Positions 15,931 to 18,276 of a DNA stretch of 20,723 nucleotides are shown here, piece by piece (position 1 is the first letter of the stretch; each line of letters starts with the position of its first letter). The DNA comes from a virus. The stretch lies in the UHGV virus genome UHGV-0278151; one strand, 5' to 3'. A program made the position numbers and the translations under genes. Under the pieces are notes generated by a model, which saw only the letters and a list, made by a program, of their open reading frames with translations, did no database searches and was not told the DNA's origin.

Positions 15931-15955
15931 AATAAAAAAGGGCCACCAACGGCCC
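15931..15955 (-). terminator. Rho-independent terminator between the TerB module and the holin
   Basis: The minus strand reads GGGCC gttggt GGCCC TTTTTTATTT, and a second hairpin (AAAGGCA-8nt-TGCCTTT, 15972-15993) lies just upstream. Confidence 0.8.
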
Positions 15956-16002
15956 ATAAAAACACCCCATCAAAGGCACCCGCAGATGCCTTTTGTGTGG
16001 TG

Positions 16003-16155
16003 TTATTCAGATTTACGCAGTAAAGGCCGGAGCACGACCAGCGCCATCGCCACCAGCACACCATCTGCCAGCACCGACATCAGCCGTCCGGTGAAATCCA
16101 CCACCACTACCAGAAACAGCAGGATGGCAGCCAGCACAAGGCGCGCACTTTTCAC
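16003..16155 (-). CDS. Small two-TM membrane protein (50 aa) translationally coupled to the TerB-like gene
   Basis: It is not in the ORF track (under 60 aa). The GTG at 16155 overlaps the TerB-like stop (CTGTGA), with GGAG 8 nt upstream. The product is VKSARLVLAAILLFLVVVVDFTGRLMSVLADGVLVAMALVVLRPLLRKSE*, with two clear hydrophobic helices and a basic tail. Confidence 0.55.
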   Translation of the reverse strand: MKSARLVLAAILLFLVVVVDFTGRLMSVLADGVLVAMALVVLRPLLRKSE

Positions 16156-16577
16156 AGGTACTGCTCCAGCGGCAACTGCAACGCCTGTGCAATTTTCTTG
16201 AGCTGCACTTCTTCATCAGGACCGATGCCGTCCTGGTCAGCAATATCCAGACACAGACACAGCACGTTAACTGCATCATCAGTACCGGCAACATCAGCCA
16301 GCTGACGAAGGGCTTCGGCATTGGCAGAACGCGGTGACGCTTCATAACGGGCGCGGATATTTGCACTCATTTGTGCAATCTCACCCGAGAACGGCGCAAA
16401 GGCAGGAAGTGCTGCAATGGTTTTCTCCAGCACAGCGATTTCTTTCGCATCACAGGTGCCGTCGGCGAATGCTATGGAATACGCACCCCAGACGGTCGCC
16501 TCCACTGCATCGCGGTTCTCCATCTTCTTCACTTCGGTAATGGCCTTGCGGGTTTTCTTTTTGAAAATACCAAACAT
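16152..16577 (-). CDS. TerB-like (tellurite-resistance TerB fold) protein
   Basis: 141 aa, MFGIFKKKTRKAITEV...GAYSIAFADGTCDAKEIAVLEKTI...LCLCLDIADQDGIGPDEEVQLKKIAQALQLPLEQYL. It has the two A-x-ADG-x-x-D/E-x-x-E repeats and the N-terminal MSFF/MFGIF-K motif of TerB. An AAGGA SD precedes the ATG at 16577. Confidence 0.7.
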   Translation of the reverse strand: MFGIFKKKTRKAITEVKKMENRDAVEATVWGAYSIAFADGTCDAKEIAVLEKTIAALPAFAPFSGEIAQMSANIRARYEASPRSANAEALRQLADVAGTDDAVNVLCLCLDIADQDGIGPDEEVQLKKIAQALQLPLEQYL

Positions 16578-16596
16578 CGTGACTTTTCCTTTTAGT

Positions 16597-16681
16597 GGGT
16601 GAGCCTGCGCCCGGGGGTGACCAGCCCACAGAGAAAGTCACACTGACCATCCCGTAAGCTCACCCCTGAAAGGCTCTGTGG
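16597..16681 (-). promoter_or_regulatory. Structured 5' leader of the TerB-like gene (two interleaved 8-bp GC-rich helices)
   Basis: Helix A pairs 16626-16633 (ccacagag) with 16674-16681 (ctctgtgg). Helix B pairs 16597-16604 (gggtgagc) with 16658-16665 (gctcaccc). The arms interleave (B-left, A-left, B-right, A-right), so they form either a pseudoknot or mutually exclusive folds. They end about 10 nt from the SD. Confidence 0.5.
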
Positions 16682-16788
16682 TTTTTGATGTGCGCCGGGC
16701 GTGGCGCAAAGAAATGAAATAAGACTTACCTGAAATTAAGGTTAATCTGAGGATTTAAACCATTTTTAAAGCTTAGTAATATCAACTC

Positions 16789-16867
16789 GTCTCCTGAAGG
16801 AGACAGATACTTATGATTCTTCATGGACTTTGTCCCGCGGCGTTAATCCGACGGCCGCGCTTTTTTT
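16789..16867 (+). ncRNA. Candidate plus-strand small RNA (about 80 nt) antisense to the late-operon direction
   Basis: TTTAAA (16754-16759), a 17-nt spacer and TAATAT (16777-16782) form a promoter-like signal. The predicted transcript has a 5' hairpin GTCTCC-tgaa-GGAGAC (16789-16804) and a terminator CGCGGC-12nt-GCCGCG-C-TTTTTTT (16836-16867). Confidence 0.45.
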
Positions 16868-16902
16868 GCGCCATATTCATCGCTAACTTACATGGCATTG
16901 CC

Positions 16903-16937
16903 ACACGGGCATTATCAGTGTCCGTGTTTCTTTTTTT
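16903..16937 (+). terminator. Second plus-strand intrinsic terminator
   Basis: ACACGG-13nt-CCGTGT followed by TTCTTTTTTT. Confidence 0.6.
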
Positions 16938-16949
16938 AGGATTCAGAAT

Positions 16950-16974
16950 AAAAAAAACCGCCCGGTGGAGGCGG
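16950..16974 (-). terminator. Minus-strand intrinsic terminator downstream of the tRNA-like gene
   Basis: The minus strand reads CCGCC-tccaccg-GGCGG followed by TTTTTTTT. It is convergent with the two plus-strand terminators. Confidence 0.75.
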
Positions 16975-17242
16975 TAAAGGATGTATTTCCAGGTTTTGCT
17001 TAATATATGAATAATCTCAATGTCATGGTGTTATTTACAACACCAGAATGATGCATCACCGACCCTGCCAGGAAATATAAAATCTCCGCCGAAAATGCAC
17101 CATTCTGCTGCCGTAAAAAAATCAGCACTGCGGCTACACCCGACCCCAAATCATAGCCAGAGAACAGAATGTTTTTAACAATCTACCCCCACGTAATAAA
17201 AAAATACGTCAGTGCCGTCACTATAAGGCGTATTTCAAATGT

Positions 17243-17318
17243 TGGAGCGAGCAGCGGGAATCGAACCCGCATCATCAGCTTGGAAGGCTGATGCTCTATC
17301 CGGATGAGCTAGTGACGG
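17243..17318 (-). tRNA. tRNA-Gly(UCC)-like gene with non-pairing acceptor stem (probable pseudogene or tRNA-like element)
   Basis: The minus strand reads CCGTCAC TA GCTC ATCCGGATA GAGC A TCAGC CTTCCAA GCTGA TGAT GCGGG TTCGATT CCCGC TGCTCGC T CCA. The D arm (G18G19), anticodon arm (UCC), T arm (TTCGATT) and encoded CCA are canonical. From the anticodon stem to the CCA it is nearly identical to E. coli glyT as I recall it. The 5' strand CCGTCAC pairs with the 3' strand TGCTCGC at only 2 of 7 positions. Confidence 0.6.
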
Positions 17319-17446
17319 TTTTATTGCCACATCCGTAACAACAGTCGACAGGAATAATATACATTCAGAATCAGCCGCCTTAGCTAATTGTGCAACCATC
17401 TGCTCTTTGCAAGTGCACTTAACGTCCTGCGCCACTTTTCAGGCAT

Positions 17447-17469
17447 AAAAAAACCCGCTCAGTGGCGGG
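17447..17469 (-). terminator. Intrinsic terminator (copy A of a 25-bp repeated terminator)
   Basis: The minus strand reads CCCGC-cactga-GCGGG-TTTTTTT. A second 8-bp hairpin (AAGGCACC-attaa-GGTGCCTT, 17490-17510) lies just upstream on the same transcript. Confidence 0.75.
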
Positions 17470-17482
17470 ATCTTTTGATAAA

Positions 17483-17594
17483 AACGACAAAGGCACCATT
17501 AAGGTGCCTTTTACACAGGGGCAGCAGGCTTGTCATCACCTCATCGCTACTCCTGGCTTCCTGTTCGGAAGTCTCACAAGTCCCATCAGGGTAC
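17483..17594 (-). ncRNA. Candidate small RNA (about 85-145 nt) from the TTGACA/GATACT promoter to the tandem terminators
   Basis: The predicted start is near 17594. The transcript has an internal hairpin CTTCC-gaaca-GGAAG, then the 17510-17490 hairpin with a U-rich tail, then the 17469-17447 terminator. There is no convincing ORF, only ATG AGG TGA and a 25-codon frame with a poor SD. Confidence 0.4.
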
Positions 17595-17600
17595 AGCGAC

Positions 17601-17629
17601 AGTATCAGCCAACACACTATGTGTGTCAA
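17601..17629 (-). promoter_or_regulatory. Strong sigma70-type promoter TTGACA-17-GATACT
   Basis: The minus strand reads TATA TTGACA cacatagtgtgttggct GATACT gtcgctg. The hexamers are those of lambda pL. The spacer contains the inverted repeat ACACAC-tat-GTGTGT. A perfect palindrome ATCGAATTCGAT (17641-17652) and a 10-bp hairpin lie upstream. Confidence 0.6.
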
Positions 17630-17664
17630 TATAAATTCATATCGAATTCGATAATCGTTTTCGA

Positions 17665-18066
17665 TTATCGATACAGATAAGCCATCCCTATCCCGTGCAA
17701 TACCGCCCGTTTAATATTCTCAAACTCATCTTCCGCAATCATAGGAACAATATAATTTCGTCCCTCCCAGGTTCTGGTTTTTATGCGATCCAGTCGGCTC
17801 AATGAAACCGTCATCAACATGTCACATTTTACCCAGCAAGTAATATGCTCATTACCAGGTATGGGGTTTTCTGATAACTCATGATGGCAATCTCTGCGAG
17901 GGAGCGGTTCAGTAGTGCTTATTGGTACCACTGTTACCAATTGATTGTTGTGCCTGTTTCTGGACACGACCACCACTGGCCTGACCTTGACTATTTCCGG
18001 AACAACCATTCCCCGAAAATCACACATTAAAACAGAACGAACAGACGGCTGATACTTTAATACCAT
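17665..18066 (-). CDS. PemK/MazF-fold toxin-like protein (YifN-like), with no adjacent antitoxin gene
   Basis: 133 aa from the ATG at 18066: MVLKYQPSVRSVLMCDFRGMVVPEIVKVRPVVVVSRNRHNNQLVTVVPISTTEPLPRRDCHHEL...WVKCDMLMTVSLSRLDRIK. This is the MazF/PemK signature (G/S-x-L-x-x-DF ... E-x-x-K-x-RP-x-VV-S ... V-x-VVP-x-ST ... D-x-x-x-TV). The SD is weak (AAGAGA). Confidence 0.7.
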   Translation of the reverse strand: MVLKYQPSVRSVLMCDFRGMVVPEIVKVRPVVVVSRNRHNNQLVTVVPISTTEPLPRRDCHHELSENPIPGNEHITCWVKCDMLMTVSLSRLDRIKTRTWEGRNYIVPMIAEDEFENIKRAVLHGIGMAYLYR

Positions 18067-18170
18067 AAATCTCTTTGCCTGATAATGACGACTTGTGAAC
18101 TCCACTACAAACAAAATGATTCTGCTGAACAGGCAGTTTCGCACTATACATTATAACCTGTTAAGCCAAC

Positions 18171-18193
18171 AAAAAAACCCGCTCGGCGGCGGG
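18171..18193 (-). terminator. Intrinsic terminator (copy B); candidate tR' about 50-70 nt downstream of the candidate late promoter
   Basis: The minus strand reads CCCGC-cgccga-GCGGG-TTTTTTT. It matches copy A at 17447-17469 in 23 of 25 positions, and the two differences lie in the loop. Confidence 0.75.
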
Positions 18194-18247
18194 ATTTGCT
18201 TACTTTGCCATCGAGTACAAAATCGGCAAAATATCAGATTTGCACGA

Positions 18248-18276
18248 AATATATGCCTTTTAATCTACTTTTGCAA
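18248..18276 (-). promoter_or_regulatory. Candidate late promoter pR' overlapping the 3' end of the Q-like gene
   Basis: The minus strand has TTGCAA (18276-18271), a 17-nt spacer and TATATT (18253-18248). The predicted +1 is the A at 18241. The initial transcribed region contains cTGaTATTTT, a -10-like element of the kind that causes sigma70-dependent pausing at lambdoid pR' promoters. Confidence 0.5.

Follow-up and report, generated by a model that had tools for sequence, protein, structure and literature searches.

What is carried between the late antiterminator gene and the lysis genes of a lambdoid prophage, and do the elements found there belong together? The question is raised by the virus genome UHGV-0278151, a stretch of 20,723 nucleotides (nt) referred to here as the window. 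It is a lambdoid prophage with all phage genes on the minus strand, in the order DUF968, RusA, the antiterminator Q, the interval considered here, two holins (PF16931 and PF05449), an M15 endolysin, the terminase, and the structural genes; 2.8 kb around the interval are 100% identical to a prophage of Escherichia coli SE11 (NC_011415.1). The interval contains an open reading frame (ORF) for a MazF-fold protein, followed by a structured small RNA (sRNA). The loci described below show that this nuclease gene and this RNA constitute one conserved two-part module across Proteobacteria and their phages. The interval around them opens the late operon and is, judging from sequence comparisons, a hypervariable cargo slot, built by recombination from independently assorting cassettes. 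A mosaic slot, holding a nuclease and a partner RNA that would restrain it, is given a probability of roughly 0.6 as the explanation of the whole locus.

The linkage between the two partners is seen from both sides. A first covariance model, built from ten Enterobacterales sRNA sequences, was run on 79 IMG/VR loci that had been found via the protein alone (100–36% identity). With this model and its successor, the RNA was detected within about 150 nt of the ORF and on the same strand in 73 of the 79 loci, and there were no convincing matches elsewhere in about 630 kb. The linked loci range from E. coli to Pseudomonas and Geobacter, with protein identities as low as 36%. In five of the remaining six loci, a divergent RNA copy could be recognized by eye, and in the sixth the ORF is truncated. 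The distinct genomic loci found from the protein all carry the RNA, downstream on the ORF strand. Both gene orders occur, the order RNA-terminator-ORF being found in four loci. Among relatives, nucleotide identity is 86–88% for the RNA versus 73–76% for the ORF. No close homologue of the ORF was found in deposited phages, where only Vibrio elements matched (37% identity), with a weak RNA match 115 nt downstream of the ORF homologue.

The reverse search, a DNA-pattern scan of metagenomes, yielded 52 model-confirmed RNAs. In 33 of these, the ORF lies 5–75 nt upstream; about 13 are without the ORF and follow other small genes or an insertion sequence (IS), and the rest are near contig ends. The full module is present in 24 of 5426 complete E. 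coli genomes, with 13 more matching part of the query; the three partial matches inspected are RNA-only. RNA-only copies exist both in E. coli and in Pseudomonas, and no intact ORF without the RNA was seen among the loci examined. The RNA can stand alone and the intact ORF was not seen alone, an asymmetry that a toxin/antitoxin relation predicts, although this is no proof of one. The preliminary description of this DNA had listed the MazF cassette and the sRNA as separately insulated modules; they are instead one unit that travels together and ends on common terminators.

The sRNA is about 115 nt long. Its core, defined by folding and covariation and comprising helices P1 to P4, runs on the minus strand from 17596 to 17510, and the whole, terminators included, occupies 17447–17596. 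The layout consists of a hairpin (P1), the motif CUUGUGAGACU, a variable hairpin (P2), a helix of 9–10 bp (P3), and a terminator; P3 encloses a mini-hairpin (P4) with the loop GAUGACAA, and the apical loop GGUGAUGACAAGCC is at 17540–17527. The terminator scan placed two terminators at 17511–17489 and at 17469–17454, the latter with a U run. Single-sequence folding of the window's sRNA gives P1–P4 with a z-score of −4.3. In the protein-first set, 97.7% of cells are paired, against 32–49% in slid controls, and compensatory changes occur at 19 of 21 pairs; covariation is similar in the pattern-selected set, so that over the two sets 16–19 of the 21 pairs have compensatory changes and slid controls are 30–50% paired. 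RNAalifold proposes an additional long-range helix (GG-CUUGU/ACAAGCC), both strands of which are near-invariant and free of compensatory change, and which a natural variant, CCAGU (locus L034), breaks. An encoded peptide was considered and rejected, the mini-ORFs differing in frame between E. coli and Enterobacter.

No Rfam 15 family matched the sRNA at E ≤ 1, whether E. coli, Pseudomonas, Geobacter, or metagenome copies were used, and no description of this RNA was found in the literature searched. Tandem Repeats Finder and a direct-repeat search of 15900–18300 revealed no repeat array, the sRNA being single-copy. It is preceded by a promoter, TTGACA-17-GATACT (17629–17601, minus strand), which matches the consensus at 10 of 12 positions and is the sole near-consensus promoter in the interval. 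Its −35 and −10 boxes and their 16–17-nt spacing are conserved in six genera (E. coli, Enterobacter, Klebsiella, Xenorhabdus, Arsenophonus, and Atlantibacter), with a spacer of varying sequence.

The ORF (18066–17665, minus strand) encodes 133 amino acids and belongs to the YifN (COG) type of the MazF/PemK fold and to phrog_15698. Its match to Pfam PF02452 (PemK_toxin) reaches 52.8 bits against a cut-off of 23.1 (E 5e-14). The AlphaFold2 model has a mean predicted local distance difference test score of 93.6 and superposes on MazF RNases with template modeling (TM) scores of 0.7–0.8, and the top 50 Foldseek matches in the PDB are without exception MazF or toxins of its family, YdcE and MoxT among them (TM scores 0.6–0.8), despite an identity to solved MazFs of about 15–20%. 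Sequence searches of the PDB gave no match with the single ORF sequence and marginal MazF matches only with the family profile (E 0.02–0.1). Since this profile places PE..K.RP...S...P.STT on the E. coli MazF motif SEQAGHRP...VPCTT, the equivalents of the active-site residues E24, R29, and T52 can be read as invariant; those of E24, R29, and S50/T52 are kept, and E24, R29, and S50 are invariant in 48 homologues. The ORF product is, by sequence, fold, and active site, a MazF-superfamily endoribonuclease with predicted activity. Homologues, named 'YifN, PemK superfamily' by the Joint Genome Institute, range from Enterobacterales to Pseudomonas and Geobacter, and those in prophages directly follow late activators of four kinds (PF06323, PF03589, PF06530, and Mor). 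A contig search with the single protein sequence gave one short spurious match. No PADLOC or NCBIfam model matched the ORF, the TerB-like gene, or the DUF3927 gene described below.

The expression signals of the nuclease gene are modest. A late promoter resembling pR' (TTGCAA-17-TATATT, 18276–18248, minus strand) was found by the promoter scan overlapping the end of Q. It would produce a leader RNA of about 70 nt ending at the terminator tR' (stem 18193–18178 plus a U run), the promoter and leader together spanning 18170–18276. The ORF sits behind tR', with a weak TATAAT-like −10 box at 18155–18150 and a poor Shine–Dalgarno sequence, and uses the terminators of the sRNA, having none of its own.

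How might the two partners work together? The RNA would be made constitutively in the lysogen from its own strong promoter. There are two possible ways in which it would restrain the nuclease: its invariant apical loop would pair with the nuclease mRNA in the leader, a short distance upstream of the start codon, and the RNA may also occupy the enzyme as an ACA-containing pseudo-substrate. The RNA would be outrun once late transcripts made under Q antitermination flood the ORF, or once host transcription is shut off by an infecting phage, and the freed nuclease would then cut RNA, leading to host shut-off or abortive infection.

Several features suggest such restraint. In the window, the leader site CGUCAUUAUCA (18080–18090, minus strand), 24 nt upstream of the ORF start, is complementary to the apical loop of the sRNA, with an RNAduplex energy of −11.9 kcal/mol. 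Complementarity at positions −24 to −29 recurs in five clades, with z-scores of −2.2 in E. coli, about −6 in Enterobacter, about −4.5 in Klebsiella, and −3.6 and −4.4 in two further clades (the extreme value overall being −6.3), and a U/C change in the loop is matched by an A/G change in the leader. The invariant loop GAUGACAAG also contains ACA, which is the core of the cut site of E. coli MazF. Because the RNA has its own conserved promoter, the ORF has weak expression signals, the loop is complementary to the leader, and the loop contains ACA, the favoured reading is that the RNA restrains the nuclease, as an antisense RNA in some lineages and possibly as a pseudo-substrate generally.

Some observations weigh against this reading. 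Xenorhabdus, Pseudomonas, Geobacter, and the alpha-proteobacterial groups show no complementarity between loop and leader; antisense control is, therefore, not universal, and antisense pairing as a universal mechanism was rejected, the complementarity being absent in most clades. About a quarter of the pattern-found RNAs lack the ORF and follow a HigBA-like pair, a protein of 85–102 amino acids, or an IS, so the RNA may have a role of its own. In a minority of loci (L206, L227, and L237), an ORF of the XRE type with a helix-turn-helix (HTH) overlaps the nuclease start, the RNA still being present, and this ORF could be a protein antitoxin. As for the structural evidence, the covariance-model alignments were fitted to the model structure, and the metagenome RNA matches had been preselected for two invariant motifs.

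A more far-reaching form of the RNA-restraint reading is offered tentatively, at well below even odds. It holds that a YifN-type MazF and a four-helix single-copy sRNA, conserved and made from its own promoter, form a new class of RNA-controlled toxin system, in which the invariant GAUGACAAG loop would act as both antisense and pseudo-substrate inhibitor, and which temperate phages of many Proteobacteria would have placed immediately behind their late activator, so that late transcription or shut-off releases the nuclease.

Could the sRNA be an independent trans-acting regulator, for example of host mRNAs, linked to the MazF-like gene merely via the same mobile cassettes? It has a near-consensus promoter and terminators of its own, and copies lacking the ORF stand behind Q (L157), behind a Panacea-domain gene (L158), and next to HigBA-like genes in a Pseudomonas chromosomal hotspot. 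Nevertheless, independence is unlikely, as the adjacency is kept at protein identities as low as 36%, both within phages and outside them, after four kinds of late activator and in inverted gene order, five clades show complementarity of the loop to the ORF leader, and no ORF without the RNA was seen.

A cis element of the nuclease transcript, acting in 3′ untranslated region stability, processing, or termination, is a less probable identity for the RNA. In Enterobacterales, −35 and −10 boxes are conserved at a fixed distance from it, four loci have the RNA with its own terminator upstream of the ORF, and RNA-only copies have been retained, all of which argue against such a role, even if in some clades the RNA begins 5–10 nt past the stop codon and leaves no intergenic room for a promoter.

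Equally small is the chance given to a type II pair, in which a protein encoded upstream or elsewhere would neutralise the MazF-fold protein and the RNA would be uninvolved. The XRE-HTH ORFs that overlap the nuclease start in three loci, and an Arc/ribbon-helix-helix gene upstream in L034, are what such a pair would look like. In the window, however, there is no ORF between tR' and the nuclease gene, 193 nt of non-coding DNA with pR' and tR' separate Q from the gene, most relatives lack a tightly coupled upstream ORF, and the PGAP annotation is that of a lone toxin.

The XRE-HTH proteins of L206, L227, and L237 are 76–91 amino acids long and end in GVRL(K/R)K, with the RNA still downstream of the nuclease, whose identity to the window ORF is about 41–42% in L206 and L227 and 39% in L237. 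These loci may represent a three-part version of the module.

Other copies stand in surroundings of their own. In E. coli A34 (L158, 1567–3274), the RNA is present without the ORF as a divergent copy (64.7 bits), downstream of the lysis genes and between the Panacea-domain gene and a ParD/ParE pair, with about 550 nt around it unannotated. Seven Pseudomonas-type metagenome contigs (L080, L133, L059, L122, L146, L147, and L152) share LysR-type and/or ketoacyl-synthase neighbours with a Pseudomonas locus (L018); they keep the RNA, and the gene upstream varies between the MazF-like ORF, a HigB/HigA-like pair or its remnant, and a protein of 85–102 amino acids ending in NRVLDNLDPP. In L126, an IS transposase is upstream of the RNA, on a contig too short for the LysR and ketoacyl-synthase neighbours to be visible. 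The arrangement on the Pseudomonas-type contigs resembles a cargo hotspot bordered by the RNA. In L034, an int-alpA RNA (Rfam RF02996, 57.6 bits) is found at 1210–1277, in an integrase-bearing element that carries the MazF-like ORF and the RNA. In Geobacter sulfurreducens (L026, about 3700–3740), the RNA is followed after about 200 nt by a tRNA 3′ fragment (GGTTCGATTCC...CACCA), and the module there probably occupies one end of an element that has integrated into a tRNA gene.

The slot that holds the module in the window is bordered upstream by Q (18955–18260, minus strand; PF06323, E 1e-93; annotated as Q in SE11) and downstream by the first holin gene (15523–15915, minus strand, with its ATG at 15915; PF16931, E 6e-24). 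On the minus strand, the stop codon of Q and the ATG of the holin are 2344 nt apart, in agreement with the 2.3 kb of the preliminary description, and the elements which that description listed are present: the MazF-fold ORF, the promoter and sRNA, a tRNA-like stretch, a plus-strand terminator, and a TerB/transmembrane pair with its leader. Two terminator hairpins, identified by sequence and terminator scan, close the slot just before the holin start (15993–15972 and 15955–15940 plus a U run; 15934–15993 in all, minus strand).

The interval had also been called an AT-rich island. Its GC content is 46.8%, versus 54.5% for the window, and the term holds for the stretch 16600–18276, which alone is low in GC (44.2%), and not for the TerB leader, TerB ORF, and transmembrane ORF, which have 53–57.5% GC, like the holins and flanking phage genes. 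The Q gene itself has 46.6% GC. A second stretch of lower GC content (13642–14874, 47.8%) separates the lysis genes from the small terminase; it contains small unassigned ORFs, such as 14537–14229 (102 amino acids), and may be another cargo slot.

That each module has its own terminator, and mostly its own promoter, is true in part. Terminator-like hairpins are enriched in the interval (13, against 3.5 ± 1.9 in shuffles), yet the nuclease gene relies on those of the sRNA. Promoter-like sites were not above chance in the interval scan (6, against 4.0 ± 2.0), and the MazF ORF, the TerB pair, and the plus-strand unit have weak promoters or none that could be detected.

One terminator hairpin, AAAAAAACCCGCTCRGYGGCGGGAT on the plus strand, is present in three copies, at 18171–18195, 17447–17471, and 16950–16974. 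The first two are identical at 23 of 25 positions (92%), and the third is looser (72%). A relative without the cassette continues after tR' with the sequence that follows the second copy in the window; the MazF+RNA cassette of 724 bp is thus bracketed by direct terminator repeats, the first two copies being 724 bp apart. This bracketing fits recombinational exchange at short common hairpins. The terminator hairpins would then serve both as insulators and as the short common sequences for cassette exchange, and the slot would contain the MazF+RNA cassette, the remains of a tRNA array, two structured non-coding units, and a TciA/TciB pair.

Relatives combine these cassettes in many ways. The exact SE11 arrangement occurs in 4 of the 5426 E. 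coli genomes, and at least five MazF-positive loci have no TerB pair. For example, L004 has the order Q-tRNA(Thr, Gly)-TerB pair-holin, and L003 has Arg-Thr-Gly-TerB pair behind a different upstream gene. L002 carries Q-MazF-RNA-65-amino-acid ORF-DNA methyltransferase-tRNAs-holin, and L005 is the same with the TerB pair added. L157 reads Q-RNA-tRNAs-holin, and L156, from a Shiga toxin-producing E. coli strain, reads Q-RNA-methyltransferase-tRNA(Ile, Arg). Comparing the interval across relatives, therefore, finds modules that occur independently, largely contrary to what was first proposed. The further suggestion that this is a moron slot, in which related phages carry DNA methyltransferase, tRNAs, or Shiga toxin (Stx) genes in terminator-bounded cassettes, is confirmed.

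The tRNA-like gene is a collapsed array. In E. coli A30, the leader that lies at 17444–17319 (minus strand) in the window is followed by intact genes for tRNA-Arg(UCG), tRNA-Thr(UGU), and tRNA-Gly(UCC). Aligned with this array, the window shows a single 157-column gap with identity on both sides, so that the tRNA-Thr is deleted and the stretch 17318–17243 (minus strand) joins the 5′ half of tRNA-Arg(UCG) to the 3′ half of tRNA-Gly(UCC). The fusion point is a common 9-mer, TCAGCCTTC, at 17291–17283, present at both gap ends. By inspection, the acceptor strands of the chimera (5′ Arg, 3′ Gly) pair at only 2 of 7 positions, ARAGORN detected no tRNA at 17318–17243, the Rfam tRNA match covers model positions 8–63 only, and folding gave no cloverleaf (z-score −0.8). 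From its sequence, then, this is a non-functional deletion pseudogene, the Arg/Thr/Gly array having collapsed via a microhomology deletion, and not a regulatory tRNA-like RNA. The alternative of an attachment-site remnant was discarded: on either side of the gap the window is collinear with the intact A30 array, which speaks for an internal deletion.

Two further units appear to be non-coding. The first (16950–17178, minus strand) contains a long hairpin of about 100 nt (z-score −3.7), a promoter-like TTAAAA-17-TATGAT (17178–17150), and a strong terminator (16975–16957 plus eight U), as found by folding and by the promoter and terminator scans; it has frame-breaking indels in relatives and follows tRNA-Gly in L002–L005. 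The second is a candidate small transcript on the plus strand (16790–16937; terminator 16903–16927, z-score −4.0) that converges on the terminator of the first, its promoter being a by-eye match at 8 of 12 positions, under the scan threshold. This transcript is part of a 230-bp segment (16720–16949) that relatives have or lack as a block; L002 and L005 have it, and it is absent from L003 and L004. A 32-amino-acid ORF within it is not credible, as 8 of its 32 residues change, its ATG becomes GTG, and it has no Shine–Dalgarno sequence. No Rfam family matched the long hairpin or the plus-strand unit at E ≤ 1.

Next to the holins is a TerB-domain gene (16577–16152, minus strand, 141 amino acids; Pfam TerB 28.7 bits; phrog_632 over its full length, 4e-64), overlapped by a gene for a 50-amino-acid DUF3927 membrane peptide (16155–16003, minus strand; DUF3927 54 bits; phrog_1470 'TciB-like', 7e-24). 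The first ORF has 78% nucleotide identity to tciA of phage P1, and the pair are, by sequence, homologues of P1 TciA/TciB. The P1 tci genes are non-essential (PMC10695390); they were named by homology only. The TciA-like gene is preceded by a structured leader of about 140 nt (16578–16719, minus strand), recognized by conservation and folding (z-score −2.0), which is 96–99% identical among relatives, versus 94–95% for the ORF, and forms the long stem GGUGAGC...GCUCACC. The scan found no promoter for this leader, and no known riboswitch or Rfam family matched it at E ≤ 1. The pair and its leader are present in 165 of the 5426 E. coli genomes, and the TciA-like ORF alone also matches on P1-like plasmids.

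As in P1 tciA-tciB-tciC, a TerB-domain protein is followed by an overlapping small membrane peptide, and tRNA genes and a DNA methyltransferase are nearby both in P1 and in the lambdoid slot; the lambdoid version alone has the conserved 140-nt leader. The order in P1 (L238, 68733–72151) is dmt methyltransferase, tRNA-Asn/Thr, tciA-tciB-tciC, and tRNA-Ile. This neighbourhood is the same as that of the relatives' lambdoid slot, and the methyltransferase/tRNA/TciAB grouping thus recurs in an unrelated phage.

It is very improbable that the interval as a whole has been co-selected as a single defence or fitness island with modules acting together, as first suggested: the modules do share one terminator-rich slot, the methyltransferase, tRNAs, and TciA/TciB are neighbours in P1 too, and one relative, P13-6, has every module, but the exact arrangement is confined to the four genomes mentioned, the MazF+RNA (24 genomes) and the TerB pair (165) overlap in a handful of loci only, the cassettes are elsewhere arranged in many different orders and combined with Q and holin genes of other families, and the tRNA-like 'module' is a pseudogene.

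The nuclease-RNA pair is real and widespread, and undescribed in the literature searched; its functional role is put forward from sequence comparison. Genome pipelines call the MazF-fold gene a 'type II toxin' without an antitoxin, and a strongly covarying RNA accompanies it almost always. If the RNA controls the nuclease, this would explain widespread 'orphan' MazF-like toxins, add an RNA-antitoxin architecture unlike the type III repeat arrays, and provide a testable link from phage late-gene antitermination to RNase release. The RNA model already permits the annotation of these loci in genomes and phage contigs.

Slots of this kind, with a moron-like organisation, are well known, and the interval as a whole is ordinary, with one element decayed. 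Like the morons that lambdoid and Stx phages carry between Q and the lysis genes (tRNAs, stx, DNA methyltransferase, porins), its cassettes are bounded by terminators and promoters at the same position, deviate in composition, and are present or absent among close relatives. Nothing categorical sets it apart, the window being one rare combination with a decayed tRNA array. The late leader has a counterpart as well: in Stx phages, the constitutive short late pR' leader RNA is StxS (PMC7547250). As for StxS and the lambda 6S-type pR' transcript, the promoter overlaps the end of Q and a strong terminator follows about 70 nt on (PMC7547250), a likeness in arrangement only. Rfam support in the window differs, consisting of a weak isrK-like match (18243–18172, E 0.57) below the gathering threshold.

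The nuclease shares its fold and its E24/R29/T52-type active-site residues with the toxins of type II MazEF/PemIK systems, but it has no MazE/PemI-like gene and forms a separate YifN clade at the low identity to solved MazFs given above. In type I systems with a trans-encoded antisense RNA, such as TisB/IstR-1, a neighbouring sRNA is likewise complementary to the toxin mRNA leader near the ribosome-binding region, and the sRNA of the window is predicted to be separately transcribed as well; the toxin of the window is, however, a 133-amino-acid soluble nuclease and not a small membrane peptide, and complementarity is found in some clades only.

Type III systems (ToxIN, CptIN, and TenpIN) also combine an endoribonuclease with an adjacent non-coding RNA on the same strand and no protein antitoxin, and their RNA-terminator-ORF order is seen in four relatives of the window module. 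ToxIN, moreover, has a fold related to Kid/MazF, is carried on mobile elements, and acts in phage defence. The RNA of the window is single-copy, of about 115 nt, four-helix, and free of repeats, and is usually downstream with its own promoter, whereas type III antitoxins are tandem-repeat arrays, processed into units by the toxin (PMC8860590). Pfam assigns the protein to PemK/MazF only, instead of ToxN/AbiQ, CptN, or TenpN, and it has no PADLOC match. Although it is without the two defining features of that type, the repeat antitoxin and the ToxN-type toxin, the nuclease-RNA pair would, by analogy, work most like a type III system.

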